A stretch of DNA of 64,000 bases, taken from NCBI GenBank assembly GCA_018238545.1, contig JABCTC010000015.1:1-64000 (forward strand), in the 5' to 3' direction. The DNA is from Candidatus Heimdallarchaeota archaeon (GTDB lineage: Archaea; Asgardarchaeota; Heimdallarchaeia; Heimdallarchaeales; Heimdallarchaeaceae). The position numbers and the translations under genes are program-made. Each line of letters opens with the position of its first letter. Positions within the stretch are counted from its first letter, which is position 1. The notes beneath the pieces were generated by a model. That model did not search any database, was not told the origin of the DNA, and saw nothing but the letters and a program-made list of their open reading frames with translations. Shown here piece after piece: positions 4,348 through 42,649 of this stretch.

Positions 4348-4355
4348 GCTGTTTT

Positions 4356-7350: not shown

Positions 7351-7387
7351 GAACAATTTAAATAGATTATAGACCAAATAAATATCT

Positions 7388-9076: not shown

Positions 9077-9154
9077 TTTGAAAAAACTAATTTTCCTCTT
9101 TTTTCTTATTTCTAATGATTCATAAAGGATATTAAGATATGATAACTATTTTCG

Positions 9155-9964
9155 ATGACAATAATGAATCTGCAGACATCAGAAGTGAATCTACCAGAAG
9201 CTCTAGTTGAACGATTGAAAAGTTATCATTGGCAGAAAGTTAACATTGGTTGGTCACGTTCTGAAATCCATAAGTTAACACAATCAAAAAAACCTACTCT
9301 CTTCCTTAAAATAAATGATTATTCTGGTGATCTGTTCTTCAATAAAGAATATGAAATGTTAAAATGGTTGAAAGATAAGATATCTGTTCCTGATGTTATT
9401 TATCACAGTACCAATTCTGAATATGAATTTCTTCTACTCACTGAAATTCTTGGAAAGGTTTCATATGAAGTATTTTCGAAATCTGATATTGAAACTAATC
9501 TTAAAATCCTAGCCGAAGGTTTACAAATATTTCATGCTCTACCTCTGGCTGGTTGTCCCAACGCGTTTGATATTGATAAGCTGATTCAGTATGCTAAAGA
9601 AAGACTAGAACAGGGTTTGATCAATGATGAAAACTTTGATGTCAGATGGAAACACAAAACTCCTGATGAACTATTTAAAGACGTGAAGCGACTGATGCCA
9701 AAAGAAATTGATGAAGTAGTGACTCATGGTGATTATTGCTTACCGAATGTGTTGATAAATACTAACGAGTTGAGCGGTTTCATTGATTTAGGAAGTGCGG
9801 GGATTAATGATCGTTACTATGATTTAGCAGCTGTTTCATGGAGCATTTCCTATAATTTCGGTCAAAAATGGGTGCCATATTTCTTTGAAAAGTATGGGAT
9901 TAATAACGATGAAATTGATAGAGAAAGAATGCTTTTCTATCAAATGTTAAATGAATTTTATTAA
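9155..9964 (+). CDS. Aminoglycoside 3'-phosphotransferase-like kinase (APH(3') family)
   Basis: LFLK, VVTHGDYCLPNVLI, GFIDLG..G..DRYYDLA, C-terminal FYQMLNEFY. Confidence 0.85.
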   Translation: MTIMNLQTSEVNLPEALVERLKSYHWQKVNIGWSRSEIHKLTQSKKPTLFLKINDYSGDLFFNKEYEMLKWLKDKISVPDVIYHSTNSEYEFLLLTEILGKVSYEVFSKSDIETNLKILAEGLQIFHALPLAGCPNAFDIDKLIQYAKERLEQGLINDENFDVRWKHKTPDELFKDVKRLMPKEIDEVVTHGDYCLPNVLINTNELSGFIDLGSAGINDRYYDLAAVSWSISYNFGQKWVPYFFEKYGINNDEIDRERMLFYQMLNEFY

Positions 9965-10007
9965 ATTTGGAAAAAATATATATTCTGTAAATTATTTCTT
10001 CTAGCTG

Positions 10008-11138
10008 ATGACAAGATTTCTCAAGTATATTAACAAGGTTACAGCTGTTAGTATCCTCATTATGTTAGTGAACTTGAATATTTTAATTGTATATTCAACT
10101 AATACTTCTCCACATAAACAAAATTCAACCTTGAATTCAGAGCAAATTTTATTGTTCAATGAAACCAATGCATACGACTTCATTTCCTCACAGCTTGATA
10201 TAGGTTATCGAGTTCCAGGCACTGTAGAACATGATATTTGTGCTGATTGGATACGTGAGCAGATAGATCCAACTGTCGATTCGGTATTAACTCACAATTT
10301 TACTATTCAGAAAGAAGGTCAAGTAGCATATGAATGTCAAAATATCCTAGGTAAGTTAAACACTGATAAAGAAAAGATTGTCATTTTAGGTGCTCACTGG
10401 GATTCACGTAATGTTTCTGAAAAAGACTATATCGATAGAAACCTACCTATTCCTGGAGCTAATGATGGTGCTTCAGGGGTCGCTGTTTTAATCGAACTGG
10501 CACGAGCTCTTTCATTCTATAAAACTAACCTTACTTGCCAAATATGGTTTCTTTTTATCGATGCTGAAGACCAAGGATACACCAATGGTATGTATGGTAT
10601 ACAAGATTGGGACTATGTCGAAGGTTCACCCATTTTTGTTGAAAATATAGAAAATTTCTATGACCCTTCAGAGGAAAATTTAGAATGTTTTATCCTATTA
10701 GACATGGTGGGTGGAACTAATCTCACGTTTATAAAAGAATCAAGATCTGATGATAACTTGCACGATGGTATTTTCACAGAAGGTAGATTATTGGGTTATA
10801 ATGAATCATTTCCTGTTACTCCTATAATCATGTCGATTAATGATGATCACATACCCTTTACAGAACTAGACATTCCCGTAGTTGACTTAATCATTGATTT
10901 TCTATATGGTGACTGGACGCATCATCATACTCATTCAGATGATTTAAGCAATATCGATCCGGAAAGTCTGAAGATAACTGGACGTACCATTGAATCCTTC
11001 ATTAAAACCTATTATTCTATGGACTCTAATCAAACCTGGATAGAGAGTGATCCTGGATTTCCGTTATGGGGATATTCCTTAGTTGGACTAGTAATTATTG
11101 TGATAGCAACCGTAGTTTTTCTATATAGAAAAAAATAG
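10008..11138 (+). CDS. M28 family peptidase / glutaminyl cyclase-like, membrane anchored
   Basis: GAHWDSR, GANDGASGVAVL, DAED, LLDMVG, DDHIPF, HHT; C-terminal PGF plus TM plus RKK. Confidence 0.85.
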   Translation: MTRFLKYINKVTAVSILIMLVNLNILIVYSTNTSPHKQNSTLNSEQILLFNETNAYDFISSQLDIGYRVPGTVEHDICADWIREQIDPTVDSVLTHNFTIQKEGQVAYECQNILGKLNTDKEKIVILGAHWDSRNVSEKDYIDRNLPIPGANDGASGVAVLIELARALSFYKTNLTCQIWFLFIDAEDQGYTNGMYGIQDWDYVEGSPIFVENIENFYDPSEENLECFILLDMVGGTNLTFIKESRSDDNLHDGIFTEGRLLGYNESFPVTPIIMSINDDHIPFTELDIPVVDLIIDFLYGDWTHHHTHSDDLSNIDPESLKITGRTIESFIKTYYSMDSNQTWIESDPGFPLWGYSLVGLVIIVIATVVFLYRKK

Positions 11139-11229
11139 TTATGTCAACCTCTAATTCACTTACTGCAAATATTAATAAAGTAGAGTGTACAAGAATGATA
11201 ACAGTAAGTTGAATTTAAGAGGTTATATC

Positions 11230-12522
11230 ATGAAGGTATCTAAAGACGATGTTAAATATCTAGTTTTTGAGGGTGGAGGAGGAAAAGGCTTGATTTATCT
11301 TAGCCCTCTTCAAGCGCTCGAAGAATTAGACATATTATCTTATAAAACTATTAATGTAAATGGAAAAGATGTGTGTCGTTTAGACAATAAAAAAATCCAT
11401 GGTATTGCTGGAACTTCTGTTGGTGGGCTTACAGCTTTGCTTGTTGCTGCTGGTTTTACATCAGAGGAAATACACACTGTTTTAATAAGTGACTTAGACG
11501 AGAAGATTCTCGATTCAGTGGAATTTGGAAAGATACCAACAGTTCATACGTTAGACAACCCCAGACACATAATTAGTGACCGACCAATCGATAAAGATCG
11601 AATGCTATTTGACAGATATTGGGAAACCTTCAAACACTCGAAAATAACTTTGAAAGGTTTGGTTAAACTCCCTGTTAAAGCTTTCAAAGAATTCAATATG
11701 GGTTTTTTCTCAGGATTAGTCAAATGGTATATAGATTACGAATCAAGAAAAGTAGTGACCAAAGAACCTAAACATGAGATATTAGGCGTTATTCATGATA
11801 TTGCAAAAACCAAAACAACAAAATCTGCTATAGACATTGTTTTAGAAAACTCAGCTGACAGTATGTACAGCTTGAAATATGATCTCGGACTTTTTTTGTC
11901 TGAATCTTTAAGAGATGCAGTTGATGGATTTATCGAGTTCAAATCTGGAATTAAGAATTGTACTTTTGAGCAATTCTATAATACTTTCAAAATTGATTTA
12001 GTTCTTACTGCATTTGATGTTTCAACCAATGAGGTCTACTACTTTAGAAACGATGAAAAATGGAAAAACCTCTGTGTTGCTGATGCCTTAAGAATGTCTG
12101 TCAGTATTCCTATGGTATTCAAACCTGTAGTTATGAAAATTGAAGGTGAAAAAATCGTAACTGTTACTGATGAAATATCTTCAGCAAATTACATAGTTGA
12201 TGGAGGATTGGGTAACAACTTTCCCATTCATGTATTCGATGAAGAAGATTCTAATGAGTTAAACCCTCATGTGCTAGGTTTCAGACTCATAGCAGCCAGA
12301 CCTTTCGTAGAAGGGGAAACAACATTCTTTGGTTACTTGGAAAATATTTTTCTTTCTTTGCTTAAATTAACTTCAGAATCTCAATTGAAAAGAGAATCTG
12401 AGAGAGATCAAACCATTGATTTAGACACTGAAGGTGTGAATTTCTTAGACTTTACATTTGAGACTATCCCTGAAAAAACACTAACAGAAGCAAGAAAATT
12501 AACATTTGAGTACTTTAAATAA
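11230..12522 (+). CDS. Patatin-like phospholipase
   Basis: FEGGGGKG, GTSVG, DGG..NNFP; ATG at 11230 preferred. Confidence 0.9.
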   Translation: MKVSKDDVKYLVFEGGGGKGLIYLSPLQALEELDILSYKTINVNGKDVCRLDNKKIHGIAGTSVGGLTALLVAAGFTSEEIHTVLISDLDEKILDSVEFGKIPTVHTLDNPRHIISDRPIDKDRMLFDRYWETFKHSKITLKGLVKLPVKAFKEFNMGFFSGLVKWYIDYESRKVVTKEPKHEILGVIHDIAKTKTTKSAIDIVLENSADSMYSLKYDLGLFLSESLRDAVDGFIEFKSGIKNCTFEQFYNTFKIDLVLTAFDVSTNEVYYFRNDEKWKNLCVADALRMSVSIPMVFKPVVMKIEGEKIVTVTDEISSANYIVDGGLGNNFPIHVFDEEDSNELNPHVLGFRLIAARPFVEGETTFFGYLENIFLSLLKLTSESQLKRESERDQTIDLDTEGVNFLDFTFETIPEKTLTEARKLTFEYFK

Positions 12523-12671
12523 TGCTTCAGATTTTTTTCTTTTCTTCTTTTCCTCTTTTGCTTAAGTATATTCAGATTAATCATGAACCCCATAATGTCT
12601 CAAATAAGATTAAATTTGTTCAATACAAATTTTAAGTAAAAACTTAAGAAAGCCAGAAGCACCTAATACAT

Positions 12672-14120
12672 GTGAAGAGAATTTATGTGGGAGTTCTATT
12701 ATCAATTCCCCTTATTGTAGTTTTACCAATGTTTTATACTGCAGAGATAATCTACAGAGATTATTACCGTTATATGAAAACTGCATTTATGTTAGCTAAT
12801 ATGTTCATTTGTGCGTTTTTTGCTGCTCGATCTAAGGAACGCGATGAAAGAATTTTCTTCAGTCTTCTTAGCGCTTCCATGTTTTTTTATTTAGTAGATG
12901 GCATATTTGATATCATCTCGATTTATTCCAATTATCCAATTGACATTTATGATGCGCTTTCAGATTTAGCAGGAAATTTACCTATCCTTGCATTACTAAT
13001 TTATCGAATTATTGTGGATTTTAAACACATAAAAAAAGAAAATCGTACTACTTTACTTTTTGGATCAATAGTATCCTCTTCAGGTTTTATCTTGTTAGGT
13101 GTTGTAGTTTTAAGAGTGGCTTTATCTACATCAGATATTCCTCTAAGCGATATTTTGCTTTATCTTCCATTTCTAATTGTCAATATTTTAATAATGTCCT
13201 TACTTGTAACTCTCTATATTCTATATGTAGAAGTTAATTTTAGATACTATATATTGGTCTTGTTATCAGGCTACTTCTTTCTCTTTGTTGGAGATGTTTT
13301 TGAGTTCATGTATGCTCTTTATAAGGGGCTTAGTAATCGAATCATATCAAGGTCTATGACTCTGTTTGCATTTTCTTTGCTGTTTGTTGTACTTATTTGG
13401 ATTAATAGTAGTAATATCAGTATCTCAACACTAAGTCAAATTGAAGCAGAGAGAACGAAATACAAAAAACTATACCTCGATTTAGATGATAAATTGAAAG
13501 ATTTGCTTGTCTTAACCCAGTTCCTACGACACGATTTTGGTAATGATATTGTAGTAATTTCAAATGCTCTTGAAATCTACAAAGAAAAACCATCTATAGA
13601 TTTGATGATGATGGCTGAGAAACGTTTGAAATTAATGGAAGAAAGAATCAGTAATTTGCGAACAAGGGAAGAAATTTATTCCAGTCTTAAAACAGTTGCC
13701 ATCCCCATTACATTTATCGAAGATATTGCAAAATTATTCAAAAATGTCTCTGTTCGAATAAAGAATAGAAAAATAATAGTTAGGGGAAACCAGCTCCTCA
13801 ACTCTGTTCTATTCAATATAATTGACAATTCTTTTAAACATGGAGGAAAAAATGTCGTTGTCAAAATAGATGTTGATACTCGAGATAGTTTTGTCATTAT
13901 AAAAATTATAGATAATGGGATTGGCATGACAGATCAACAGAAAACAATCATCCGAAATCGCGTTGCAACTTTGGATGAAAATCTAGAAATTCCAGATAGT
14001 GTAGGGTTGATGTTAGCTAAAACTACAATAAATGGTATAAGTGGAGAGCTGTTCATTGAAGACAACAAACCTCAAGGGACAATAATAATTATTGAGTTAC
14101 CTCTGTTTAAGGAGAAATAA
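12672..14120 (+). CDS. Membrane sensor histidine kinase
   Basis: Multiple TM segments; H-box LRHDFGN; N-box NIIDNSFKHG; DNGIG; GLMLAK; PQGT. Confidence 0.9.
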   Translation: MKRIYVGVLLSIPLIVVLPMFYTAEIIYRDYYRYMKTAFMLANMFICAFFAARSKERDERIFFSLLSASMFFYLVDGIFDIISIYSNYPIDIYDALSDLAGNLPILALLIYRIIVDFKHIKKENRTTLLFGSIVSSSGFILLGVVVLRVALSTSDIPLSDILLYLPFLIVNILIMSLLVTLYILYVEVNFRYYILVLLSGYFFLFVGDVFEFMYALYKGLSNRIISRSMTLFAFSLLFVVLIWINSSNISISTLSQIEAERTKYKKLYLDLDDKLKDLLVLTQFLRHDFGNDIVVISNALEIYKEKPSIDLMMMAEKRLKLMEERISNLRTREEIYSSLKTVAIPITFIEDIAKLFKNVSVRIKNRKIIVRGNQLLNSVLFNIIDNSFKHGGKNVVVKIDVDTRDSFVIIKIIDNGIGMTDQQKTIIRNRVATLDENLEIPDSVGLMLAKTTINGISGELFIEDNKPQGTIIIIELPLFKEK

Positions 14121-14219
14121 CGGTAGATTATTTTTTCTATTATTTAATTGAACACAGATTTAGAATATTGTTAGTAAGATATTTAAGTGCTTAAACTCCA
14201 TTTGAAACAGGTTTAGAAC

Positions 14220-15140
14220 ATGGAATTAAAGTTCAAATGTTATCACCATGAGTCCGATTTCAATCGTGTACGGAACTTTTACATTGATAACTATGAAACT
14301 GCTTATCCATCTATATGGACATTCGAGAGATGGAATTATATGATGTATTTCGTCCGTGATATGTTTGAATTCTCTATTGAAAAAATGGAAGATGAGATAG
14401 GTTTATGGGAGGATGAGAATGGAAATATCCTAGGAATAATCACTAATGAGGCAGTAGGAAGAGGAGAAGCATTTATTCATCTTCATCCAGACTTTTATGA
14501 AAAATCTGTTCTTAAAGAAATGTTTGAATTAATTGAGGAAAAATATACAGTTGAGATAGAAGGTAAAGAGATAATCAAACTAAGAATTTTAGATGGAAAC
14601 ACAGATTTAGAAAGACATGCTAGTGAGAGAGGATATGTCAAAAAACCCGATGCTGTAGAAACAACCAGTCTCCTTCTATTGGATAAAGAATTAAAATTGC
14701 CAGAAATTCCTAATGGTTATAGAACCCTAAGTATGGCTGATGAGAATAATCTAGAGAAAAGGACACTCACATTTGCTAAAGCTTTTGGTAATTATGGAAC
14801 AAAAGATCAAGTTCAACCACATAGTTACATCGAACTTCAGAAGTGTCCTGACTATGGAAAGGATTTAGATGTTTATGCAGTAGCTCCTGGTGGAGATATT
14901 GTTTCTTTCTGTTTAATATGGTTTGATGAAAAAAACAAGATAGCTATATTAGAGCCTGTTGGTACAAATCCTGATCACAGAAAAAAAGGATTAGCAAAAA
15001 TAGTTGTTTATGAGGCAATTAATCGTGTGAAGAAGGAAGGGGCAGAAAAAATTATTGTTGGTGATGGACAACAATTTTATCTTTCAATTGGCTTCAAACA
15101 TGATTATAGAAACATAGTATGGATTAAAGAAGTGAGTTAA
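14220..15140 (+). CDS. GNAT family N-acetyltransferase
   Basis: LEPVGTNPDHRKKGLAK, FYLSIGF. Confidence 0.85.
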   Translation: MELKFKCYHHESDFNRVRNFYIDNYETAYPSIWTFERWNYMMYFVRDMFEFSIEKMEDEIGLWEDENGNILGIITNEAVGRGEAFIHLHPDFYEKSVLKEMFELIEEKYTVEIEGKEIIKLRILDGNTDLERHASERGYVKKPDAVETTSLLLLDKELKLPEIPNGYRTLSMADENNLEKRTLTFAKAFGNYGTKDQVQPHSYIELQKCPDYGKDLDVYAVAPGGDIVSFCLIWFDEKNKIAILEPVGTNPDHRKKGLAKIVVYEAINRVKKEGAEKIIVGDGQQFYLSIGFKHDYRNIVWIKEVS

Positions 15141-15168
15141 TATTACTCTCTTCCTTTTCAAATCTTCT

Positions 15169-16086
15169 CTAATAAGTTTTAAGAACTTGTTTGAATTGGT
15201 TTAGTGTTTTTGAATAATTAGCTGTCCCTTTCTCTCGATTATACGATTCTATATTTTCTTGCAGCTCTGCTACTGTTTTAACCCCAAATATAATTGAATC
15301 AGCTTGTTGTTCTAGACCATATTGAAAACATTGTGCAGGAGTTGAGGGTTCAATCAATTTCAATGAGAATTTATTTCTTCCAGTATAGTAAGCTGAATAA
15401 TTAGTCTTCTTAGTAGAGAAAGCTTTTCCTTTTAACAAGTTCTTTATTGCTATTATTGCTATCTCATTCTTTTTGCAGTATTTGATTAATCTTTGAGTTG
15501 AATCAAGAATCCCTGTAGAAAAATTTAGTGGAAACATGATGACATCAAACTGCTCTTTTTGTAAGATTTTCAAGAGAAGCTCAGGTTTGTGAGCACTGAA
15601 CCCGATAGCTTTTGCTCTTCCTTCTCTTTTCAACTCTTTTGCATAATCTAGAACTCCTCCCTTGACAATTTTTTCAAAATCTTCCATATGAGTAACAAAC
15701 TGATGCAAAGCTATGTCAGCATATTCTACATCTATTCTGTCAAGCATTCCTTCATAGGTGGATTTTATTGCTTTAAGTGATCGAGATTTTCTATGGTTTG
15801 GTCCTTTTGGACTAAAGATACTGCCTAGATGTGCTGTGAAAGTGATTTTTTCCCTTTTATCTTTGATGAAATCTTTAAACACATCATAGAAATATGGGAT
15901 GTTAAAGACTATATCATAGTGAGTTAGACCTAAATCATAAGCTGCTTCTAGTATGACCTTAGAATTCTGCTCTCGAGTCATATCATCTGGATTTTGTGTT
16001 CTAACTACAAAGTGTTCTATCCCTAAACCAAGAATACTTAATTTCACGCCATTCTTTTCTAATCTATTCATTGAAATGTGCTCCAT
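15169..16086 (-). CDS. Aldo/keto reductase
   Basis: LSILGLG, L.R..VEYADIALH, LKREGRAKAIGFSAH. Confidence 0.85.
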   Translation of the reverse strand: MEHISMNRLEKNGVKLSILGLGIEHFVVRTQNPDDMTREQNSKVILEAAYDLGLTHYDIVFNIPYFYDVFKDFIKDKREKITFTAHLGSIFSPKGPNHRKSRSLKAIKSTYEGMLDRIDVEYADIALHQFVTHMEDFEKIVKGGVLDYAKELKREGRAKAIGFSAHKPELLLKILQKEQFDVIMFPLNFSTGILDSTQRLIKYCKKNEIAIIAIKNLLKGKAFSTKKTNYSAYYTGRNKFSLKLIEPSTPAQCFQYGLEQQADSIIFGVKTVAELQENIESYNREKGTANYSKTLNQFKQVLKTY

Positions 16087-16180
16087 ATAGAACTAGATAC
16101 TTGAGATTTATGATTGTTTCTTTTCTGGTTTCTAAACAAAAAGAAAACTTAATATCTTTACATACGAGTGAACCGCTAAG

Positions 16181-16843
16181 GTGGTTGAGATTTTCTCAAG
16201 AAAAAAGAATGTTAAAAGCATGAGAGATTTGTTCATAGAGACTAGTAGTTTAACTAAATGTGCTTTTGAAACTATGAGAAATGCTGTTTTAGCGTATGTG
16301 GAAGGAAATTTTGATCTTGCGAAAAAAGAAGCTGATATTACAATAGCAACTGAGAAAAAACAGGACAGAGTAAAGGAAGAGGTTTTTGCAAGAATGTTTT
16401 CCAGAGAAACAATGGTTTTTTCAAGAGCAGACCGTATCCAAATAATTGAAAATATAGATAAAATCACAGATAAAATCGAAATTGTTGTTAGAAAATTACT
16501 TCTTTATCAAGTTGACATAAAAGCCCCTCTTAAGGAAGAAATTAAAGAGTTAGCTGAATTGAACAATCAAATTGGTAAAGAGGTGCATGAGATGGTAATA
16601 GCTGTTCTAGATGATTTTGAGAAAGCAAGAGTTCATATCACTGAGATTACAAATTTAAGAAGAAACGTTCGTGAGAAACAGTGGAAACTTCAAAAGATGA
16701 ACTATGATTATCACGATATTCAAGAAGATTTTCTAGCTTTTAGGTATACTGAGACTTTAATCAAATATTTAATGGAAACTGCTGATAGAGCAGAAATTTT
16801 TGCTGATCGTGTTTTCATACTCATTAACAAATATGCACCATAA
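16181..16843 (+). CDS. DUF47 / PhoU-like phosphate transport regulator
   Basis: EKKQDRVK, RADRIQIIENIDKITD, ETADRAE; immediately upstream of PiT. Confidence 0.85.
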   Translation: MVEIFSRKKNVKSMRDLFIETSSLTKCAFETMRNAVLAYVEGNFDLAKKEADITIATEKKQDRVKEEVFARMFSRETMVFSRADRIQIIENIDKITDKIEIVVRKLLLYQVDIKAPLKEEIKELAELNNQIGKEVHEMVIAVLDDFEKARVHITEITNLRRNVREKQWKLQKMNYDYHDIQEDFLAFRYTETLIKYLMETADRAEIFADRVFILINKYAP

Positions 16844-16868
16844 TCTAACAATTAATGGAGTAGCGAAA

Positions 16869-17882
16869 ATGGAACCCATAGTTATAATTATTTTAATTTT
16901 AATGGTAATTCTATCATTTGGGATAGGTGCCAATGATGAAACTATGGCTACATTGGTGGGGAGTCGTGTTCTTAAAACAAAATATGTAATTGTTTTAGCT
17001 GCTATCTTATCCTTTGTTGGAGTTTATTTTCTATCTGATAAAGTAGGTAAAACCATAGGTGAGAATCTTCTAGGAGCAAATGTGGAATATAGTGTAAGCA
17101 TGCTAATTGCAATTATCATAAGCACAACAATATGGCTGATAGTTGCCTCCCTTACAGGAGCACCTATCTCTACAACTCATTCAGTTGTAGGAGCTGTTTT
17201 TGGGGTAGCTATTGTTTGGAGTTTCCAGCCTGGTCAAAGTTTTTTGACTTCACTGGATTGGTCGACCTTAAGACAGGTTGCATTAGGTTGGATTATCTCT
17301 CCATTGATGGGATTCTTCGGAGCAATTTTGTTTAAATTTATACTGGATAAGTTTTTAGCATCCCAGATGAAAGGTCTAGAACGCTTAGAAAATTTTGAAA
17401 GAATCTTCGGATATGTATTGATTTTAATTGTAGGATGGACACAAATAAGCAGAGGGGGTAATGATTCAGCAAATGCTTTGGGTATAATGTATGGTTTAAT
17501 TGATTCTGGACAATTAATTGGCGATCCACTAACCATAATGTTACTGACTCTTGCAACAGGAGTTGTTTTGGCTCTAGGGATTGTAATCATTGGTAGGAAT
17601 GTCATAAAAAATGTTGGAAACAATCTTATAGCGATGAGACCTTCTGATGCGATTAGTATAGAATTGGCAACAAGCATTACCCTATTCTTAGCTACGATTT
17701 TCGGTTTTCCAATTTCTGGAAGTCATGTGCTAATTTTTGCTGTAGTGGGTGCAGGAATGATAAAAGGCGAACGCCCAAATAAAAAAGCTTTCAGGCAGAT
17801 GGTTATAAGCTGGGTGGTAACCTTCCCGGTAGCAGCTGTTTTGTCAGCTCTGATATACAGTATTTCACTCGTTATTTTCTGA
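16869..17882 (+). CDS. pit: Inorganic phosphate transporter (PiT family)
   Basis: GIGANDE, GAPISTTHSVVGA, GGNDSANA, GFPISGSH; ATG at 16869. Confidence 0.92.
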   Translation: MEPIVIIILILMVILSFGIGANDETMATLVGSRVLKTKYVIVLAAILSFVGVYFLSDKVGKTIGENLLGANVEYSVSMLIAIIISTTIWLIVASLTGAPISTTHSVVGAVFGVAIVWSFQPGQSFLTSLDWSTLRQVALGWIISPLMGFFGAILFKFILDKFLASQMKGLERLENFERIFGYVLILIVGWTQISRGGNDSANALGIMYGLIDSGQLIGDPLTIMLLTLATGVVLALGIVIIGRNVIKNVGNNLIAMRPSDAISIELATSITLFLATIFGFPISGSHVLIFAVVGAGMIKGERPNKKAFRQMVISWVVTFPVAAVLSALIYSISLVIF

Positions 17883-17898
17883 AGTTGATTTTCAAAAT

Positions 17899-18237
17899 TT
17901 ATTTAATCAAACGATCTAGCAAAAACTCTTTCTTAATTTTAATAGCTCTGATAAGTTTCTTAAGCTCTTTTTCTCCTTTATCATTTAAACAATATAAGTA
18001 AGCCACTCTTTTTCCTGTTATTTGTTCTTCTTGAAATAAAATATTTTCTTCTACCATTCTTTTCAATTCTGGGTAAAGAGTACCTGTTTTGAGCTCAATC
18101 CGTCCATCAGTAAATTCTTTAACTAAATTTATTAGTTTATACCCTGAAGATTTAGGATTGTCTCTTAAGAGAAAAAGTATCAGAGTTCTAACTATGGGTA
18201 CTGATTCTAAGATGTTTCCTTTACTTGTATTACTCAT
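17899..18237 (-). CDS. PadR family transcriptional regulator
   Basis: GYKLI, GTLYPELKRM, Y.LNDKG. Confidence 0.85.
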   Translation of the reverse strand: MSNTSKGNILESVPIVRTLILFLLRDNPKSSGYKLINLVKEFTDGRIELKTGTLYPELKRMVEENILFQEEQITGKRVAYLYCLNDKGEKELKKLIRAIKIKKEFLLDRLIK

Positions 18238-27079: not shown

Positions 27080-27544
27080 GTGACAAAAATGAGTTATGGT
27101 ATAGATAGAAGACCAAGTGGCGGTCGAGGGAAAGGTGGAGGTCGAAGACCAGGTGGAGGTCGAGGACAAGGTGGGAAAATTGGTATGGGATCAGGAGGTT
27201 GGTGTGTCTGCACAGCTTGTGGGCAAAGAGCTGCTCACCAGCGAGGTGAAACCTGTAATCAGAAGCAATGTTCATCTTGTGGGGAGAGGATGATAAGAGA
27301 TATAGGAACTCAAGGTTTCCCTCAACAAGTAAACTCTAGAACTTCAAATCCTATGCAGAGTAGTTTTCAAAGATTCAAAATCCCGATTGTTGATGAAGGT
27401 AAATGCGTTGGATGTTCTTTGTGTTTAAGTAGTTGCAGATATAATGCAATACACATGGTAAATGGTAAAGCACATATTCAAGAAAACCTGTGCCAGGGGT
27501 GTAAGGCTTGTATTCCCTCATGTCCTCATGGAGCTATATCCTAA
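27080..27544 (+). CDS. Ferredoxin with Gly/Arg-rich N-terminus and Cys-rich zinc-ribbon-like domain
   Basis: RGG-type repeats; CVCTACG..HQRG..C...C..CG; CVGCSLCLSSC and CQGCKACIPSCP. Confidence 0.85.
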   Translation: MTKMSYGIDRRPSGGRGKGGGRRPGGGRGQGGKIGMGSGGWCVCTACGQRAAHQRGETCNQKQCSSCGERMIRDIGTQGFPQQVNSRTSNPMQSSFQRFKIPIVDEGKCVGCSLCLSSCRYNAIHMVNGKAHIQENLCQGCKACIPSCPHGAIS

Positions 27545-27628: not shown

Positions 27629-28888
27629 TCATGATATAGGGCGAAGACACTCTATACTCACTCTGAGTGGATACATCACGTATCCTCCTACCCCGTTCAC
27701 CTTGCGTTTAGGCAAGGCTTTCGGATCGCTTTTTATCAGAATATTATATGCAGCATTAACATCAGCATTGATCAAGTGGCCTTGAGCTGAACGAAACAGC
27801 CCTCGGTGGATTCTTTTCCCTTTGTAATTTTTCCGCTTTTTAGGGAACTCATTATCCAGGAAACTGCTTTTAGAGGTGTATTGTTCAGGAATCGTCTCAA
27901 CTTTTATCCCTCGTTCTGTTCCTTTGTATTTTAGCAAATCGATGATTTTCAAGAATGGGATGGTGACGAACATCTGGGTGGTTTTTTTCCAAAAATGCAT
28001 TCCTTGTTTCCATAGCTCATTATACCCTATCACCACTTCATGTAGCCCTCGTTCCACCCACAAGTCAACCAGATACTTGGTTAATTTGTGGATAGCATCG
28101 TTTAGCTTTTTTCTCCACTTTTCTTTGAGCTTATAGTAAGCTGGACCATATTTTAGACGATTATTCGATTGCAATTGTTTTCTCTGTTGCTGACTATACT
28201 GTAGTTGTAGTTTCTTCTGTTCTTTCAGATAATACTGTGTAATTGATTTTATCCCTTTCCCTGCGTCTTTGATAACAATCGGTCTTCCTCCGAGGTTATC
28301 CACGAAAGCGGCAAGGTTGTCCATCCCTAAATCCACAGCTCCTTTTCTGGTCAACTTTTTCCTGAGATTGGGTATACTCTTGAGATAAACAAGTTCAAGG
28401 GTATAGTGAGTTCTTCGGGGAATGATTCTTACTTCTCTTAACTCTGCTTGAGCTGTTAGCCTTGTCTTGTAAGTGTACTTCACTTTCTTAGGTAACACTA
28501 ACCATCCATTGACAATACGTGCTTGTTGATTGGTGAAGATAGCTACTACTTCCCCATCCTTCTTTTTGTAGTTAGGTGGATTAGGCATGGCAAAAAACAA
28601 TGTTGGGTTCTTCTTCCACTCTTGTTTCGCTCGGAAAAAGCTCTTCCAGGTTCTAGAAAGGAGTTTGAGAGTTTGTTGGGCAACATGAGCAGGAAGGACT
28701 CTGTAGCATTCTTCCTGTTTCAACTGTCTGTCAAGATCATAGTAAAAGAGAAGTTTACTTGTTTGCTTCAAGGAGGTTTTTATCAGAAAATTTGCCCAAT
28801 TATAGAGATTTTTTGCTTGATGACAGATTCTGCTCAGTGCTGGATGATACTCCACTTCTATACGCTCTGCTCGCAGTACCTTTGCCAT
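27629..28888 (-). mobile_element. tnpB: TnpB RNA-guided nuclease, IS200/IS605-family element without tnpA
   Basis: AKNLYNWAN, QQTL, PPNYKKK, RuvC-I AVDLG, VIGYN..WKQ, EQYTSK, RuvC-III NADVNAAYNI. Confidence 0.92.
27669..27718 (-). ncRNA. Putative omega-RNA (reRNA) hairpins in tnpB 3' end; true boundaries unknown
   Basis: Hairpins GCCUUGC/GCAAGGU and GGAUAC/GUAUCC, structurally conserved with the second tnpB. Confidence 0.55.
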
Positions 28889-29685: not shown

Positions 29686-30465
29686 TTAATTTTTACTTAC
29701 ATTTTCTGCGACAGGAAAGTATGTGGGATAGATTAACTTGGCGAAATTTTGATATATTTCTACACTATAATCTTTTGTTTCAATAAGAGATTCTAGTTTT
29801 ACTATTTCTGATTCAGTATATCCTTTCATATCTGGAAATGATTCAGGATCACCATAATCTAATATCTTGACTACAAATTCATCTAGTTTAGTCAGCTCAA
29901 GATAGGATTCAATTATCAGATGAATATGTGGAGTTAGTTTCTCAATAATCTCTTCTTCCTTCACAGAATTTGTAATTCTAATTACTGAAAGAATAGCAGC
30001 TCTCTTTGTTATGTAATCTCGAGCATATGCTACATTTTTGAGCGGATATAAAACATCTACATCATCTAAGTATCCAATAGCTCTTATGGCGGCATATTGT
30101 AAATCATAACCACTTTCTTCGAGCATTTTGATGAGATAAGGTTTAGAATCATAATGTTTTAGTTTACCTAATACCTCTAAGATCGTTAGTTTAGTAGATA
30201 AAGAACTTCTTTCAACGAGATCATGTAGATGAGTTAAAACCTCTTTCTTTGATTCTGGGTATTTGGAAGTAAGAAATAGTATAGAAGAAGCTGCAGCATT
30301 TCTCACATTCCATTCCGAATCTTCTAACAGCGGTAGTAGTTTTTTTACTGTTTTTGCTTTACCCTTAATCTGTTGAAATAATGCAAAGTGAACTCTGTCT
30401 AATGGAATCTCACTTTGTAATTTTTTACCCATGCCTAATCCTTTAAGGAAATTCTCAACACTCAT
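29686..30465 (-). CDS. HEAT-repeat protein
   Basis: LLPLLEDSEWNVRNAAA, LEVLGKL, LQYAAIRAIG, KRAAILSV. Confidence 0.85.
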   Translation of the reverse strand: MSVENFLKGLGMGKKLQSEIPLDRVHFALFQQIKGKAKTVKKLLPLLEDSEWNVRNAAASSILFLTSKYPESKKEVLTHLHDLVERSSLSTKLTILEVLGKLKHYDSKPYLIKMLEESGYDLQYAAIRAIGYLDDVDVLYPLKNVAYARDYITKRAAILSVIRITNSVKEEEIIEKLTPHIHLIIESYLELTKLDEFVVKILDYGDPESFPDMKGYTESEIVKLESLIETKDYSVEIYQNFAKLIYPTYFPVAENVSKN

Positions 30466-32042
30466 AATTCAAACAGTCCTTCTTTTATTAGATACGCAAT
30501 TGCACCTCTTTGTGGTTGGGTCAATTTGCGTAAATAAGTATAATCAACATTGCTCACATCAACCTTATCTTCAGATTCTTCATCTAAATCAAATTTGTAA
30601 GCGTCTTTTCTTTTAGTTACTTGAACAGCTCTTGTTACAACCGGTAAATTATACGGAGACAGAGGTTGATGTTTTGTTTTATGAACAGCGAATAGTGTTG
30701 AAACGTGAATTCCACCAATCTTCTTGAATACAATTACATCAGCAAATGCAGGAAGAATCGTCTTGAAATCATCCCTGTACAGTGCCATATGGTTATGAAG
30801 TATAACAAGTTGATCTATTCCTATTCCATAATCATTAACTTCAAAAACATATACTTTCTTTTGATCAACTTTGACATAGCCTTTGGATTCTATTCTTGGT
30901 TTTTCATCTTGTAGCTGACCGAAAGTTGAAAATTTCTTTCTATATACCTTTCTAGTATATTCATCAATGATTTTCCAACCATATGCATAAACAGACCAGA
31001 TATCTGTCCATCTACTTCGTGTAGAGTGCCATTTCTCAACAACACCTTCAGAATGCAGATTTTTATTTACCGCAAGCAAATCCTTTACTTCGTCCCAAGT
31101 GAATTCTTCCAACAGATTAATATCTGATTTATAATTGAATAGTTTGCTGAAAAGCTCTTTTTCATTTTCAACTTTGGTTTCAAGCCTTCTTATTACAGCT
31201 AAACTAAATTCACCAATGGGAGGAGCTAAAAATGATTTCAACTCATTTGGTAATTTTGGTTCTTTATCCTCAACACTTTTCTTGAACTCATAATCGCCTG
31301 ATTTTATAAGATATTCAATGCCTTTTGCTTGAACATAATGTGCAAAACCTTCATCAATTAGCTCATGCAGATGCTTTTTCCTTGATACTTTTGCTCTTTC
31401 AGATAGATAGTTTATAGCTTCAATTGAAAAATTATTGAATAGAGTATATTTTCGTGCAATTTCAGGAGGGATGTAAAAATCTTCTACACCAGCTTCGGTG
31501 AACAATCTAATTACACCAATTAAATCTTGGAAATATTGCCATGCCCAAGCATGTCCATCAGATGATTCTTTGTTTAATTGAAAAACATTGTTTGTCATTA
31601 ATTCCTTCAGAACAGTGTCTATCTGATAAAGTCTTGAGAGTATTTGTGGTGAGTTTGACTCAGTTTTTTCATTCATGTAAGCATGAGCAAAGGCATGAAT
31701 TAGCATTACTCTAAGAGTGAATTCCTGTTCTTTGTTAAGTTCATAAGAAGGAGCTGAAAGATAAATCAAAGTAGGTAGAGAATTATAGATTGTTTCTTTT
31801 CCAACTGGCAAGAAATCGTTTATACGAGCAGACTTAAGATGAGTTATTTGTTCAGCCGTCAAAATAGCTTGTGGGGTACCAGTTATTTCAATAACTCTAT
31901 TTACCGAAACATGCAAATCTGGGTTAACAAAAAGCAATGCACGATAGTTTTCAGGAGTTTCGCCTACGAGAGCTTTGAAATCGTCTCTTGCCAAATTATA
32001 AACTCGGACTATCTCATCAAATTCAGTTTCTGTTTTAAGCAT
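30462..32042 (-). CDS. Zincin-like protein with degenerate HExxH (HAFAH), probable pseudo-peptidase
   Basis: LRVMLIHAFAHAY and downstream IDEGFAHY; overlaps both neighbours. Confidence 0.55.
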   Translation of the reverse strand: MLKTETEFDEIVRVYNLARDDFKALVGETPENYRALLFVNPDLHVSVNRVIEITGTPQAILTAEQITHLKSARINDFLPVGKETIYNSLPTLIYLSAPSYELNKEQEFTLRVMLIHAFAHAYMNEKTESNSPQILSRLYQIDTVLKELMTNNVFQLNKESSDGHAWAWQYFQDLIGVIRLFTEAGVEDFYIPPEIARKYTLFNNFSIEAINYLSERAKVSRKKHLHELIDEGFAHYVQAKGIEYLIKSGDYEFKKSVEDKEPKLPNELKSFLAPPIGEFSLAVIRRLETKVENEKELFSKLFNYKSDINLLEEFTWDEVKDLLAVNKNLHSEGVVEKWHSTRSRWTDIWSVYAYGWKIIDEYTRKVYRKKFSTFGQLQDEKPRIESKGYVKVDQKKVYVFEVNDYGIGIDQLVILHNHMALYRDDFKTILPAFADVIVFKKIGGIHVSTLFAVHKTKHQPLSPYNLPVVTRAVQVTKRKDAYKFDLDEESEDKVDVSNVDYTYLRKLTQPQRGAIAYLIKEGLFEL

Positions 32043-33441
32043 GCATCATACTCTCCCTTAAAATTTGTTCTCCCAGCTTCTTTATTTGAGCAGGATCGAT
32101 GAGAATGGGTCGTGTTATACCCTTCAACATCTGTTTTGTGTGAATGAACAACTCCTTATTACGTAGAGATTCAGTTCCCATAAGGAAATAAGAAATGTTC
32201 CAATTTCTTGTTCTATCATTTTTAAGATGTTTGAAAATCCCATTGAGTTGAATCAAACAATCTATTGTTTCTGGTTTCGTTTTGGTTTGAATTTCAGAGA
32301 AGTATTTCTGCAACTCCTCATTTTTCCGATAATTATATGGAAAAGTAGGAACATTGGGCATACCGTCTGTAACTATTGTGAAGTATACATCAATATCTTT
32401 ATCCACACGTTGTTTTTTTGCGTGATCAATAGCAGTCTGAACGGCTTGAACCATGTAAGTCTTACCCTTTGCGTCAGCTGTTAGAAGGTAATTTTCCATT
32501 TTACTGTCATCATCAACGACAGTTGGGTTCTTTCTAACAGGAACTACGGCAAGTTTGAACATGTCAAATCTTTTCCTTTTTCGACGATTCAGTATTTTAA
32601 AGTAATAGTATAGACTTAAACTAGTTAAGAGGGCCCCATCTAGCCTTGACATTTTACCTTCAAAAACAGCCTTCTTCATAGATTGACTCATATCTACAAT
32701 AAGATACACAAGTGATCGTCTATCTTTTTTCACACGAATTATATCTTCCTGTTTAACAGAAGTTGGTGGTATATTTTGAGAACTCAAAATTGCGCTTTTA
32801 TAAGTCTCTCTAAGTCTTATTGTGCCCCTAGGTCTCTTTTGTACTTCATCGATAGGTGCTACTGATATTTGTTTTAAAAGAAAACGACCAAGAATCTTTC
32901 CAAGCAAATCCATAACACTTTCTCTAGAAATACGCTTCTTCCTACCAAAGGCATCGGTTATTTCAATGTCTATTATCTCTTGTAATTGGTTGAGTTTTTC
33001 TGCTAACTGATCTAAATCAACAGATCCTTCATATTTAAGATTACGAAGCAGATCTTGTATATACTTGAGAATTTCTTCTAGAGTTTGTAGCTCATTACGA
33101 TTTACTCTTTCCAATACATCTGGTAGAATCCTATCACCCATAAACCGTAGAATTTTGAGTTCGTTTAGCAAGCGTTCTTCTTCTGGAGCTGTCAAATATG
33201 TTGTCATTATCTTCTGAACAATATTCTCCATCGCCACAGCATTTTTTGCAGCAAGAGAAAGAACTGCTCCTTCACGAGAACTTCTTCCTAAATGAGGATT
33301 ACGCCATAACCTAAGTACTTGAGCAGCATCTTCAAAATCTAAGATGAATTCAACGTCTCCATATGCTTGAATAGGATCAGTGAATTCTTCTGCTGTTATG
33401 AAATTTATTCTATGGGGCATGTTATTATCTCCAATGGGCAC
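32035..33441 (-). CDS. von Willebrand factor A domain protein
   Basis: MIDAS: LIVDMSQSM (DxSxS), GKT, IVTDGMP; preceded by IRLRETYKSA helix. Confidence 0.88.
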   Translation of the reverse strand: MPIGDNNMPHRINFITAEEFTDPIQAYGDVEFILDFEDAAQVLRLWRNPHLGRSSREGAVLSLAAKNAVAMENIVQKIMTTYLTAPEEERLLNELKILRFMGDRILPDVLERVNRNELQTLEEILKYIQDLLRNLKYEGSVDLDQLAEKLNQLQEIIDIEITDAFGRKKRISRESVMDLLGKILGRFLLKQISVAPIDEVQKRPRGTIRLRETYKSAILSSQNIPPTSVKQEDIIRVKKDRRSLVYLIVDMSQSMKKAVFEGKMSRLDGALLTSLSLYYYFKILNRRKRKRFDMFKLAVVPVRKNPTVVDDDSKMENYLLTADAKGKTYMVQAVQTAIDHAKKQRVDKDIDVYFTIVTDGMPNVPTFPYNYRKNEELQKYFSEIQTKTKPETIDCLIQLNGIFKHLKNDRTRNWNISYFLMGTESLRNKELFIHTKQMLKGITRPILIDPAQIKKLGEQILRESMMHA

Positions 33442-33454
33442 TAGAAATGCCTGT

Positions 33455-35002
33455 TTAGATGTAATCTACTCTCAACAATTGCTCGTAAGATGGTCTAAGA
33501 CTCTCAATAATTGTTGCTCGAATTTTGTCTTTGTATTTATCTAAACCTTCAAACTTTACAATCAAATCTGCTAATTCATTATCACTTAATGCCTTCATCT
33601 TTGAAATATCTTCAGAGATATCTTGTACACTTATAGAAACTTCCGATTCTTTTATAGATGTTCTTAGTAGAATCTTGATTTGTTGAAGAGCATCATTGAG
33701 CATCGAAACTGGTATATCATAAGCATTCATTGTACTACGCAGCTTCTCTAAAGTTATGACATTGACATCTGTAGCTGTTTCTCTAGCTTGCAAAAGCACT
33801 GTTTCACCGATGATATTGTTCATAGTACGTAAATCGATGTGAGGATTTCTTTGTGGATCATGAATTTCATCAAGACCAGAATAGAAATCGGTACGTGCCA
33901 TACGACTTTCTGAACGAATGTCCTTTGATTTTAGGTTGCTAGGTAAAGAATTATTTCCAAGATACGCAAGAAAATCTACTGCAAGTCTGCTAACAAAATC
34001 TGTAGTGTCTTTTTCCAATTCATGTAATTGAATAATGGAAGGATTTGCTGTGATTTTTTTACTTGAAAGAACAATCTGCTCTTCAAACATATCGCGTATA
34101 ATTTGTTCTCTACTTTCAACAGAACGTGCGGGCCACAGTACTTCAGGAATACGATTGATAATAGGTTGACTTTCTTCTCCAAAGACGGTTAATGGCGCGT
34201 TAGATGTGAAGATTACAGCTCCATCAATGTAAACTGGTTCTCCTTGGATATTGTATTTAATACCCATTGGTTCTTCGAGAAAACCCATCAATGATTCTAA
34301 TAGTGTTAAGGGGAGCCTCTGAATTTCATTTACAACTAATATACCATGGGAAAGAACGCCTACCTTATGCGAAGTAGCGGCATAAGTAGTCTGAGTTTCT
34401 TTGCCAAACAACTCTTCTAAGTTTTCGACACCAGCAAGTAACATATAGAGACTTTCAGGGTCATTTCTTGGATCAAGTTGCGCTCTTCGGACTAGTGTTT
34501 TTGTTGCTTCAAGTTTTCCTAGCCTACTTACTACTTCTTTTGGAGAAATTTCAAGTATACTATTTGTATTATCTAATTGTACAGGACTACCTTCATCAGA
34601 CAAAATACCTTCGATTTTTTGTCTGCAGTAAGGACATAGAGATTGCATAACTCTAATTCCAGCAAAAGGATTTGATGGGAAGTTATTGATAATATCTACA
34701 ATGTATCCAGCGTCTTCTAGGAATGGACAACCACCGATGTGATATTTGTTGTTGTTGATTTCTCTAACGATATGGTCAAGCAACACCCTTGCAAAAAGAG
34801 TTTTGGCTTCACCTGTTGGACCTGTGATTAAGACTTTACCACCAACAGCTAATTTATCCATAACAAGTTTTTTTCCAATTTCATTACCACGAACAGTAAC
34901 GTCTTTAGAAACTCTATCACGGAACTCTGGATTCATCAATATTGAACGGACAGAATAACCAGAATAACCATCCTTCATTATATTTCCAATTGAAATTGTC
35001 AT
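33455..35002 (-). CDS. AAA+ ATPase, MoxR/Mg-chelatase-related clade
   Basis: Walker A GPTGEAKT, Walker B ILVVNE, sensor-1 FTSN, Arg finger PIINR; CPF..CPYC insert. Confidence 0.88.
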   Translation of the reverse strand: MTISIGNIMKDGYSGYSVRSILMNPEFRDRVSKDVTVRGNEIGKKLVMDKLAVGGKVLITGPTGEAKTLFARVLLDHIVREINNNKYHIGGCPFLEDAGYIVDIINNFPSNPFAGIRVMQSLCPYCRQKIEGILSDEGSPVQLDNTNSILEISPKEVVSRLGKLEATKTLVRRAQLDPRNDPESLYMLLAGVENLEELFGKETQTTYAATSHKVGVLSHGILVVNEIQRLPLTLLESLMGFLEEPMGIKYNIQGEPVYIDGAVIFTSNAPLTVFGEESQPIINRIPEVLWPARSVESREQIIRDMFEEQIVLSSKKITANPSIIQLHELEKDTTDFVSRLAVDFLAYLGNNSLPSNLKSKDIRSESRMARTDFYSGLDEIHDPQRNPHIDLRTMNNIIGETVLLQARETATDVNVITLEKLRSTMNAYDIPVSMLNDALQQIKILLRTSIKESEVSISVQDISEDISKMKALSDNELADLIVKFEGLDKYKDKIRATIIESLRPSYEQLLRVDYI

Positions 35003-35019
35003 TGTATTTTCCTCTTATT

Positions 35020-35616
35020 TTATTGATTATTTTCTTCTTCTGAAGGAAATTGAACTTTAATAGGTTGTATTTTTTCTAATAATGCTTCTTTTTCTTCCCA
35101 AGGTTTAATGTAACCCATATGGATTACTTTTTTCATCCATTTCAGAGATTCAATTAATGAATCTACGTCTGGAACCTCAAAAAGGTTCCATATACGATCT
35201 GTTAAACGTATGAGAGACATATTTTCTATTAATTCTCCTCTAGTCAAAGCTCCTTGTAAGTCAGTATTGTAAGCACAGACTGCTATAGGAAGATCGTCTA
35301 CTTCCTCGTCCCAAATAATTTTTTCCCAGAAATAATTACGCTCATGTTTAATCATTTCTTCTTTCGTTGCATCAATAAGATAGAGAATTCCTTCAAAAGG
35401 GATAAATTGTTTAGGTGCGAATTTTAGCTTTTCAGCATATGGAAGTTCATTCAAACAGCTATCAATGATAAATTCATTTAAAGAAGTATTAGAACGCATT
35501 AGCAAAACACGGTTGCGAGTTGCTGGAAGGTTGTTTCCCATAACCAATACCGATGTTTCAGGATAGCCAAGCTTTCTACGAATAGTTTGAAATGTTCGTT
35601 GGATGAAGTTAGTCAT
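35020..35616 (-). CDS. Arf-like small GTPase-fold protein with degenerate G-motifs
   Basis: GILYLIDA..., LPIAVCAYNTDLQGAL..ELIENMSL..L.DR.W, LIESLKWM parallel the Arf C-terminal half; no GKT. Confidence 0.7.
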   Translation of the reverse strand: MTNFIQRTFQTIRRKLGYPETSVLVMGNNLPATRNRVLLMRSNTSLNEFIIDSCLNELPYAEKLKFAPKQFIPFEGILYLIDATKEEMIKHERNYFWEKIIWDEEVDDLPIAVCAYNTDLQGALTRGELIENMSLIRLTDRIWNLFEVPDVDSLIESLKWMKKVIHMGYIKPWEEKEALLEKIQPIKVQFPSEEENNQ

Positions 35617-35709
35617 TGGGCTTCGCTAAAGAATTTGGAATATAAATCTTTAAATGTTTTATGAATCCGAAGGAAAAAGTTTTTGATGTTATTTTCTCAT
35701 CTCATCAAG

Positions 35710-41431: not shown

Positions 41432-42649
41432 CTAATTTGGTTTATAACAGAAAGGATACACCACATATCCTCCTACCCCACCCACACTCCGCATAGGAAG
41501 TGCTTGTGGATCGCTTTTCAACAAAATATTATAGGCAACGTTTACATCAGCATTTATTCGTACCCCATTTGCTGATTGAAATACACCTCTTTTGATTCTC
41601 TTTCCTTTATAGATAGTGTGTTTCTTTATTGGTTCATTATCTAAGAAACTGCATTTGGAAGTATAATTCTCTTCGATAAGTACTACTTTGATTCCTTTTT
41701 CTTCTGCTTTGTAAGTTATTTTTTCAATTAGCTCTAGAAAAGGAATCTGAACAAAAAGTTGATTGAATTTTCTTCCAAAATTTATTCTTTGCTTCCAGTT
41801 CTTATTATATCCAATTACCAATGTCCCAATACTTTTTTTGCTGCATTCTTGGATTATGAAACTACTTAGTTTATGAAGTTGATTCAACTTCTTAAGCTCA
41901 AACTTTCTCTTTAGTTGATGAAATTTCTTTCCATTCGTGCTTAGGTTAGAACTATAGCAGCGTGAAAGTTCAGATGATTTCTTATTGAAATACTGTACAA
42001 TTGATTTTATTCCTTTACCATTATCTTTGACAATAATTGGTCTAGATCCAATATTGTCTACTAAAGTTATAATGTTAAGGTATCCTAAATCGATTGCAGC
42101 TTTTCTGCTGCTTGGAAGGCTAATAATTGTTAGTTTCTTCTGATAAATAATTTCAATAGTATAACCCACACCTTTTGGAACGACTCTAACTTGCTTTAAT
42201 TGTACATCTTCATTAAATCTAGTTTTAACTGTAAAATTGACTTTTTTTGGTAACTTTAAGGTACCATCTTTGCGTATGCGGGCTTGATTTGCAGTAAATG
42301 TTGCAGTAAACTGTCCATTTGCTGATTTGTATTTAGGTATTTTTGGTTTTGTTTGACCTCTTGAAGGATTATGAGTGTATTTTTTGTTAAGTTTAAAGAA
42401 CGATGTCCAGTTTTCTCTTAATCTTCTCAATGTTTGTTGAGCTGTGTGTCCTGGCAAATTCGTATATTCCTTACTGTTTTTCATCAAATCCCAAAGATCA
42501 ATATAACTTGAAACAAAGCCTTTTTTTGTAAACTCTTGTCTTAGTAGATAATTGGCTTTATTGTACAAATCCTTGACTGAACGACATAAATTACTTAGTT
42601 CGACACTTTGTTTAACTTCAATACGTTCTGTTCGATAACAGTATGTCAT
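41432..42649 (-). mobile_element. tnpB: TnpB RNA-guided nuclease, IS200/IS605-family element without tnpA
   Basis: LYNKANY, AQQTL, RuvC-I AIDLG, VIGYNKNWKQ, EENYTSK, NADVNVAYNI. Confidence 0.92.
41454..41503 (-). ncRNA. Putative omega-RNA hairpins in second tnpB 3' end; true boundaries unknown
   Basis: GCACUUC/GGAGUGU and GGAUAU/GUAUCC hairpins, covarying with the first copy. Confidence 0.55.

Follow-up and report, generated by a model that had tools for sequence, protein, structure and literature searches.

What is the function of the five-gene operon that lies on the minus strand of a Heimdallarchaeia contig and encodes, in order, an Arf-fold protein without GTP motifs (pseudo-Arf), an AAA+ ATPase, a VWA protein, a zincin-like protein (gene 4) and a HEAT-repeat protein? 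The operon is found in the first 64,000 nucleotides of contig JABCTC010000015.1 of Candidatus Heimdallarchaeota archaeon (GenBank assembly GCA_018238545.1), the stretch referred to here as the window. In public records all five proteins are hypothetical, save for one "MoxR-like ATPase" label. An earlier note on the window had proposed that they form an undescribed, ATP-driven remodelling complex. Our analysis suggests, at a probability of roughly 0.6, that the operon is a Heimdallarchaeia-specific and highly diverged PrkA(YeaG)-YeaH-SpoVR(YcgB) module with a built-in adaptor, for which stress-linked protein remodelling or turnover is the most likely role. By analogy, the proposal of an ATP-driven remodelling complex is retained as a reading. 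The claim to an undescribed system holds for the variant and its two accessory genes; the core follows the known PrkA-YeaH-SpoVR architecture, the SpoVR fold of gene 4 having been missed.

As the earlier note had described, the five genes are co-oriented, and in gene order they are separated by gaps of 17 and 13 nucleotides and then by overlaps of 8 and 4 nucleotides. Alignment showed that the VWA orthologues mostly begin at the methionine of MPHRI (ATG at 33420); a start at this position is probable and would give a protein of 461 residues and a second gap of 34 nucleotides. All five genes are single-copy in the source genome, which its relatives assign to the Heimdallarchaeaceae. Gene order in related genomes, which had been named in advance as one of the points on which the proposal should be judged, is kept in 23/23 complete Heimdallarchaeaceae loci; five further loci from this family end at contig edges, and none contradicts the order. 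In a more distant set of 20 Heimdallarchaeia genomes (AAA identity, 51 to 65%), the last four genes were contiguous in all 17 assessable loci. One other distant locus (L070) keeps VWA-gene 4-HEAT divergent to the AAA gene, and two have the AAA gene alone within the stretch fetched. The pseudo-Arf gene is directly upstream in 13 of the 20, two genes off in 1 and at some other site in the remaining genomes. Because the order is kept down to approximately 50% AAA identity and each gene is single-copy, the operon is genuine and not a chance arrangement.

Among 300 Asgard genomes, 50 carried the AAA gene and 49 carried gene 4, and every one of these belonged to one of five Heimdallarchaeia families. 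Neither was found in the other large Heimdallarchaeia family (0/21), which is probably Hodarchaeales, or in other Asgard classes among these genomes. The distribution of the pseudo-Arf and HEAT genes, each found in 53 of 82, follows that of the core, and both co-occur with it even where the pseudo-Arf gene has been relocated. An apparent absence of pseudo-Arf from family f4 was rejected, a more divergent copy being located approximately 5 kb away in two of the three genomes.

Gene 4 gives the operon its clearest link to a known system. The earlier note had called its product a dead zincin, and both the model and the alignment agree with a gluzincin fold that lacks the catalytic glutamate; the model further indicates that the protein has the SpoVR/YcgB fold and is not an orphan. 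It matched SpoVR/YcgB in the atlas searched with template modelling (TM) scores of 0.53/0.57 over residues 7 to 523, which takes in both domains, the N-terminal gluzincin domain (carrying HAFAH and EGFA) and a C-terminal beta/alpha domain. Ordinary gluzincins matched over residues 1 to 350 only. The best sequence alignment with SpoVR falls on the E-x(22)-EG[FW]A and KDES/KSD motifs. In BFVD, gene 4 matched a 617-residue protein (E = 5e-5) that was equated with the SpoVR of phage phiLo by protein length only. Position 117, that of the catalytic glutamate, is occupied by A, S, L or T in 40/40 sequences; SpoVR itself is without this residue, so its loss is normal for SpoVR. The ligands H116, H120 and E231 occur together in 26 of the 40, and most Kariarchaeaceae-type sequences have lost the metal ligands, with the operon still present. 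With Foldseek, nothing in the PDB matched gene 4 at E <= 0.001; the copy used contains no SpoVR or YeaH structure.

Inspection of the AAA+ ATPase confirmed the atypical motifs pointed out previously, namely, Walker A (GPTGEAKT) and Walker B (VVNE, with N225/E226 invariant in 24/24), as well as an insert whose cysteines (C92, C123 and C126) are kept in 23/24. Since the Walker A lysine, the Walker B glutamate, sensor-1 N268, the arginine finger R284 and the sensor-2-like R392 are invariant in the 24 sequences, the enzyme is probably active despite asparagine at the usual aspartate of Walker B. Profile comparison with hhalign gave 96 to 98% against PrkA, a value that indicates homology only, the cut-off of Pfam AAA_PrkA (PF08298) not being reached. 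The PrkA profile placed the operon AAA first in the source genome, narrowly. Against bacterial Rv0958-type proteins the values were 37 to 51%, rising to 97% after the archaeal protein P0149 was added; at equal alignment size, the Rv0958-type match was weaker than that to PrkA. For this comparison we used proteins from Nonomuraea, Nocardia, Tsukamurella and Thermomicrobium, which we take to be Rv0958-type by their likeness. The local alignment with PrkA ends at residue 291, covering the AAA+ module only, and the global alignment spans 468 columns; the MoxR and CoxD-like ATPases of the source genome aligned over approximately 50 columns around Walker B only. No match was obtained when the AAA profile was compared with PDB sequences.

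In a small AAA tree, the Heimdall sequences branch on their own together with two metagenomic relatives (98/95). The Rv0958-type clade (100/100) leaves them out, the outgroup of MoxR and CoxD types branches separately (95/94), and deeper branching is weak. As judged from sequence, the core is a third branch of a PrkA/Rv0958-related group, with the architecture of the prkA-yeaH-spoVR triad. Two observations on individual AAA proteins may be added. In P0055, from genome G029, the three insert cysteines are all replaced by serine together, which points to a structural metal site that can be dispensed with. P0149, which is apparently archaeal, has a VNE Walker B and an AAA_PrkA match and is encoded (L076, positions 1140 to 4609) with a DUF444-like VWA protein and a 216-residue third gene product, a locus that looks intermediate between the PrkA and Rv0958 types.

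The VWA protein retains an intact MIDAS, as claimed (D250-x-S252-x-S254, T328 and D359 invariant in 28/28), and does not match the DUF444/YeaH family PF04285. The order AAA-VWA-SpoVR fold in the operon is that of prkA-yeaH-spoVR in bacteria. The operon resembles PrkA/YeaG (PF08298; SpdA)-YeaH/YhbH (DUF444, PF04285)-SpoVR/YcgB (PF04293/PF24755) in this order, in an AAA that has an insertion following Walker A and a residue other than Asp in Walker B, and in a third gene whose product is a gluzincin lacking the Glu, with an EG[FW]A motif further downstream and a C-terminal domain of the SpoVR type. It differs in that its proteins match none of the three Pfam families, its AAA has 515 residues compared with approximately 640, the N-terminal half of its VWA protein is different, the metal ligands of its third gene are variable and it has the extra pseudo-Arf and HEAT genes; moreover, the variant was seen here only in Heimdallarchaeia and one metagenomic relative. 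We propose that the core would work like the triad; as it fails Pfam membership, we do not file it as a canonical member. Single-sequence hhalign comparisons with Escherichia coli YeaG, YeaH and YcgB were not significant, and profiles were needed; an NCBIfam search of the operon proteins returned nothing informative.

Canonical SpoVR exceeded the Pfam cut-off in 1/300 Asgard genomes and in none carrying the operon. The only canonical prkA-yeaH-spoVR loci among the Asgard genomes searched (L088 and L089; G290:C418 and C578) are beside phoH on short contigs that look like phage or contaminant DNA, and one of their SpoVR proteins holds an intein-like insertion. In Thermus phages phiLo and MN1 (L132 and L133), spoVR adjoins a PrkA-like gene labelled "serine kinase", which places the triad on phages too. 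A search of the accessible literature found no paper that connects Heimdallarchaeia to PrkA, or SpoVR to zincins.

The most remote full-length AAA match (P0141; E = 6e-20) is encoded on the metagenomic contig L095 (Logan SRR26786796_97554). Positions 928 to 17906 of this contig (57% G+C) hold the AAA gene, a VWA homologue (99%) and a gene 4 homologue (96%) in the same order, followed by genes for 11 complete, co-oriented and apparently helical proteins of 179 to 730 residues that are Pfam-less or unannotated. All 11 end in a common tag of approximately 40 residues that finishes R-x-R-R-F-Y(G). Because this triad precedes 11 tagged helical proteins and no pseudo-Arf was recognised in the locus, the comparison points to the triad as the conserved unit, with helical accessory proteins as adaptors or clients that can be exchanged. 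Homology between the C terminus of the HEAT protein and the tag was rejected, the score being equal to the shuffled median. No relatives of the L095 AAA were found in viral contigs, and none of its gene 4 homologue in the protein collection.

Turning to the accessory genes, a Pfam Arf match was obtained for 22/29 pseudo-Arf orthologues, and the AlphaFold2 model of the pseudo-Arf was best matched by the Asgard protein HodArfR1 (8oul; E = 3e-9; TM, 0.63), in agreement with the Arf-like fold proposed earlier. The G1 (GxxxxGKT), G3 (DxxG) and G4 (NKxD) motifs are missing in all 30 orthologues aligned and retained in the source genome's own ArfR-like GTPases. On its primary structure, the pseudo-Arf is unable to switch on GTP, and nucleotide-coupled helix release cannot apply to it. 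Conservation is centred on W97, W102 and the segment S134-R141, and the invariant residues (W97, L135, R137 and D140) lie on the face opposite the nucleotide site. The protein shares with Asgard ArfR and eukaryotic Arf-Arl proteins (HodArfR1, 8oul; GerdArfR1, 8oun) the fold (TM, approximately 0.6), the sequence pattern of the C-terminal alpha4-beta6-alpha5 region and, in the window and in Heimdallarchaeaceae, an amphipathic helix at the N terminus that lacks Gly2. Unlike them, it is without GKT, DxxG and NKxD, its switch region is shortened and its conservation sits on the back side. Term searches of two papers on Asgard Arf proteins found no mention of operon partners or neighbours for them.

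The earlier note had suggested modelling the Arf-like protein with the HEAT protein, and this gave a confident interface. The predicted complex scored 0.84 (best control, 0.00), a value reached in benchmarking by 58/80 solved complexes and 2/110 mismatched pairs; at least 91% of contacts agreed between runs, and the pLDDT (predicted local distance difference test) of the partner was at least 63. The predicted interface falls where the pseudo-Arf surface is most conserved (permutation p = 1.5e-4), on the back side of the protein and opposite the switches. On the HEAT side it includes the invariant D121 and the conserved R55, E97, Y124 and R155. Binding of the HEAT protein by the pseudo-Arf is therefore supported by prediction, and since it would use the most conserved pseudo-Arf surface, the pair is probably an adaptor. 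Arf1 contacts the gamma-adaptin trunk of AP-1 with its C-terminal back side (PMC5540999), so that in both cases an Arf fold meets, here by prediction, a HEAT solenoid with the face opposite the switches. The operon differs from Arf1/AP-1 in that its Arf is nucleotide-blind, its HEAT partner is of the short prokaryotic HEAT_2 type and the likeness of that partner to adaptins is one of generic repeats only. In this pair, prokaryotes may offer a simple case of a helical solenoid gripped by an Arf fold. Membrane targeting by the N-terminal amphipathic helices of the two proteins is plausible from their sequences. More tentatively, the dimer would be a membrane-peripheral adaptor that brings the PrkA-type AAA+/VWA/SpoVR machine to membranes via this Arf1-like back side.

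Several results weigh against a diverged PrkA-YeaH-SpoVR module with an adaptor. The gene 4 TM score of 0.53 is just above the fold threshold and compares two predicted models; its sequence likeness to SpoVR is weak (hhalign, 5 to 18%; E = 0.001 to 0.008), and 0/30 gene 4 members reached the cut-off of Pfam SpoVR (PF04293). The VWA protein is closer to the Rv0959 type (hhalign, 84 to 95%) than to YeaH (10 to 33%), and in the AAA tree the Heimdall clade joins PrkA with weak support (73/81). Conservation on the HEAT side of the predicted interface is only weakly enriched (p = 0.28 overall and 0.04 for polar residues). The complex score may partly be memorised likeness, because an Arf1-adaptin HEAT complex has been solved. 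Lastly, the biochemistry of the canonical system is unsettled, highly purified Bacillus anthracis PrkA having shown no protease and no kinase activity (PMC13001217).

The alternative that survives best, although we consider it unlikely, is that the AAA+ and VWA proteins are an Rv0958/Rv0959-type (chelatase- or MoxR-like) chaperone for one client, either gene 4, with metal being inserted or removed, or the Arf-HEAT dimer; the SpoVR likeness would then be that of a shared gluzincin scaffold only. The earlier note had drawn this comparison, and it stands as far as the AAA N-terminal motif, the VNE Walker B (PrkA is hydrophobic at the Asn position, and Rv0958-type proteins carry the same VNE), the cysteine-bearing insert and the adjacent VWA gene are concerned. 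The Mg_chelatase/AAA_5 clusters that are the atlas feature neighbours, and the joint occurrence of the three gene 4 ligands in most sequences, also fit. The comparison fails in that the operon AAA belongs to a separate clade. The Rv0959-type VWA protein, annotated with its partner as a magnesium chelatase or sigma-54-interacting regulator, has 650 to 700 residues, and the two annotated Rv0958-type loci examined contain no SpoVR-fold, Arf or HEAT gene. Moreover, the SpoVR match extends over both gene 4 domains, beyond the reach of ordinary gluzincins, and the operon persists where most Kariarchaeaceae-type gene 4 sequences have lost the metal ligands.

Less probable again is a membrane-bound, proto-coat-like machine, in which the pseudo-Arf would be a permanent membrane anchor, the HEAT protein would serve as a subunit of a coat or adaptor, and the AAA+/VWA motor would act on the assembly or on membrane-protein clients to remodel them or take them apart. 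The pseudo-Arf has an N-terminal amphipathic basic helix (hydrophobic moment, 0.64; 0.5 to 0.8 across Heimdallarchaeaceae), and so do all 27 HEAT orthologues (0.38 to 0.69); one report describes membrane binding of Asgard ArfR proteins through such a helix, which they need for it (10.1101/2024.02.28.582541). The use of the Arf back side and a roadblock gene downstream of the operon in family f6 point the same way. However, the helix is truncated in 4/6 pseudo-Arf sequences of family f6 and weaker in Kariarchaeaceae-type ones, and the first helices of HEAT proteins are amphipathic in any case. The HEAT protein is also short (259 residues) and without specific adaptin similarity (Adaptin_N, E = 0.003, below the cut-off), no conserved membrane or coat gene is nearby, and the other large Heimdallarchaeia family yielded no instance of the system (0/22). 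It is very improbable that the core serves as a kinase or in signalling and that the pseudo-Arf and HEAT proteins are the outputs it regulates. Annotation does name YeaG a protein kinase, and a signalling pathway was once proposed for the triad (10.1101/072470), but the operon AAA is approximately 130 residues shorter than PrkA and locally similar in the AAA+ module only, the B. anthracis protein showed no kinase activity, and an earlier report on Bacillus subtilis PrkA described ATP-dependent proteolysis and not a kinase (PMC9512850).

For the diverged PrkA-YeaH-SpoVR module, known systems suggest how the parts might act. The operon shares an AAA+ protein, a MIDAS-bearing VWA protein and a likely mechanism with the MoxR/VWA chaperones (NorQ/NorD, CbbQ/CbbO and RavA/ViaA), from which it differs in an NE rather than DE Walker B and in lying outside the MoxR clade. 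In NorQ/NorD, a single VWA protein sits on the AAA+ ring and holds the client by an acidic patch through its MIDAS, and ATP hydrolysis remodels the client (PMC9976466). By this analogy, the AAA+ protein would form a ring with the VWA protein on top, the MIDAS metal would grip an acidic patch of the client and ATP hydrolysis would remodel or unfold it. Because the catalytic glutamate is missing and one lineage has lost the metal ligands, the peptidase-like cleft of the SpoVR-fold subunit would bind polypeptide without cutting it. The pseudo-Arf would be a constitutive scaffold that holds the HEAT solenoid with no GTP switch, and the dimer would most likely select clients or position the machine, possibly at the membrane via its two N-terminal helices. 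In bacteria, yeaG, yeaH and ycgB are co-fit in six species and act genetically as one unit (10.1101/072470), and starvation-induced bulk protein degradation in E. coli requires YeaG (PMC13684143). By analogy with YeaG, the physiological role may be proteome turnover under stress or starvation.

Table 1. Genes of the operon, in order of transcription, with window coordinates
Feature	Coordinates	Strand	Length (aa)	Pfam
Arf-fold pseudo-GTPase	35020..35616	-	198	Arf, E 7e-7
AAA+ ATPase, PrkA/Rv0958-related group	33455..35002	-	515	Sigma54_activat, 2e-5
VWA/MIDAS protein, YeaH/YhbH position of triad	32035..33441	-	468	VWA_2, 0.0017, below cut-off
Protein with predicted SpoVR/YcgB fold (gene 4)	30462..32042	-	526	No match
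HEAT-repeat protein	29686..30465	-	259	HEAT_2, 4e-13

The genes on either side of the operon (Table 1) are unrelated to it: a Nudix gene in divergent orientation lies upstream and a TnpB gene of the IS605 type downstream. The 66-nucleotide gap at 35617-35682 is common to the pseudo-Arf and Nudix genes. Two elements within it are conserved in Heimdallarchaeaceae: CATAA-x-ATT-x-TTAAA, which precedes the pseudo-Arf start by approximately 35 to 48 nucleotides, and CGAA-x-CCC, which comes immediately before the ATG. No clean conserved TATA position was established upstream of the operon, and a sigma-70 promoter scan, not applicable to an archaeal host, scored below chance. IS605-family TnpB genes are located at 27629-28888 and 41432-42649 of the window; the copies in the source genome are numerous and 75 to 94% identical, which suggests a recent expansion. 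A 154-residue open reading frame at 27080-27544 is Gly/Arg-rich at its N terminus, contains a Cys-rich motif and shows a ferredoxin-like 2x[4Fe-4S] pattern at its C terminus.

Elsewhere, the neighbours vary by family. In family f6 (probably Gerdarchaeales; L060 to L065), a co-oriented gene for a protein of 133 to 136 residues lies directly downstream of the HEAT gene, and two of the three proteins tested matched Roadblock/LC7 (E = 7e-6 and 0.002), a classic partner fold of small GTPases. An FKBP-type prolyl isomerase gene adjoins the pseudo-Arf gene in both Kariarchaeaceae-type loci tested (L049 and L052).

The PrkA/YeaG-YeaH-SpoVR module is widespread, and YeaG has recently been tied to bulk starvation proteolysis, while the biochemistry of the module is debated. 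Recognition of SpoVR as a Glu-less gluzincin, together with divergent triads that carry accessory solenoids, suggests a way in which clients may be bound and chosen. The pseudo-Arf-HEAT pair, with its predicted conserved interface, bears on the origin of Arf-solenoid pairs. If the pair is indeed a membrane adaptor, it would give an Asgard Arf-fold protein a physical partner, and close archaeal relatives of eukaryotes would have coupled a bacterial-type proteostasis module to Arf-solenoid targeting of the eukaryotic style.

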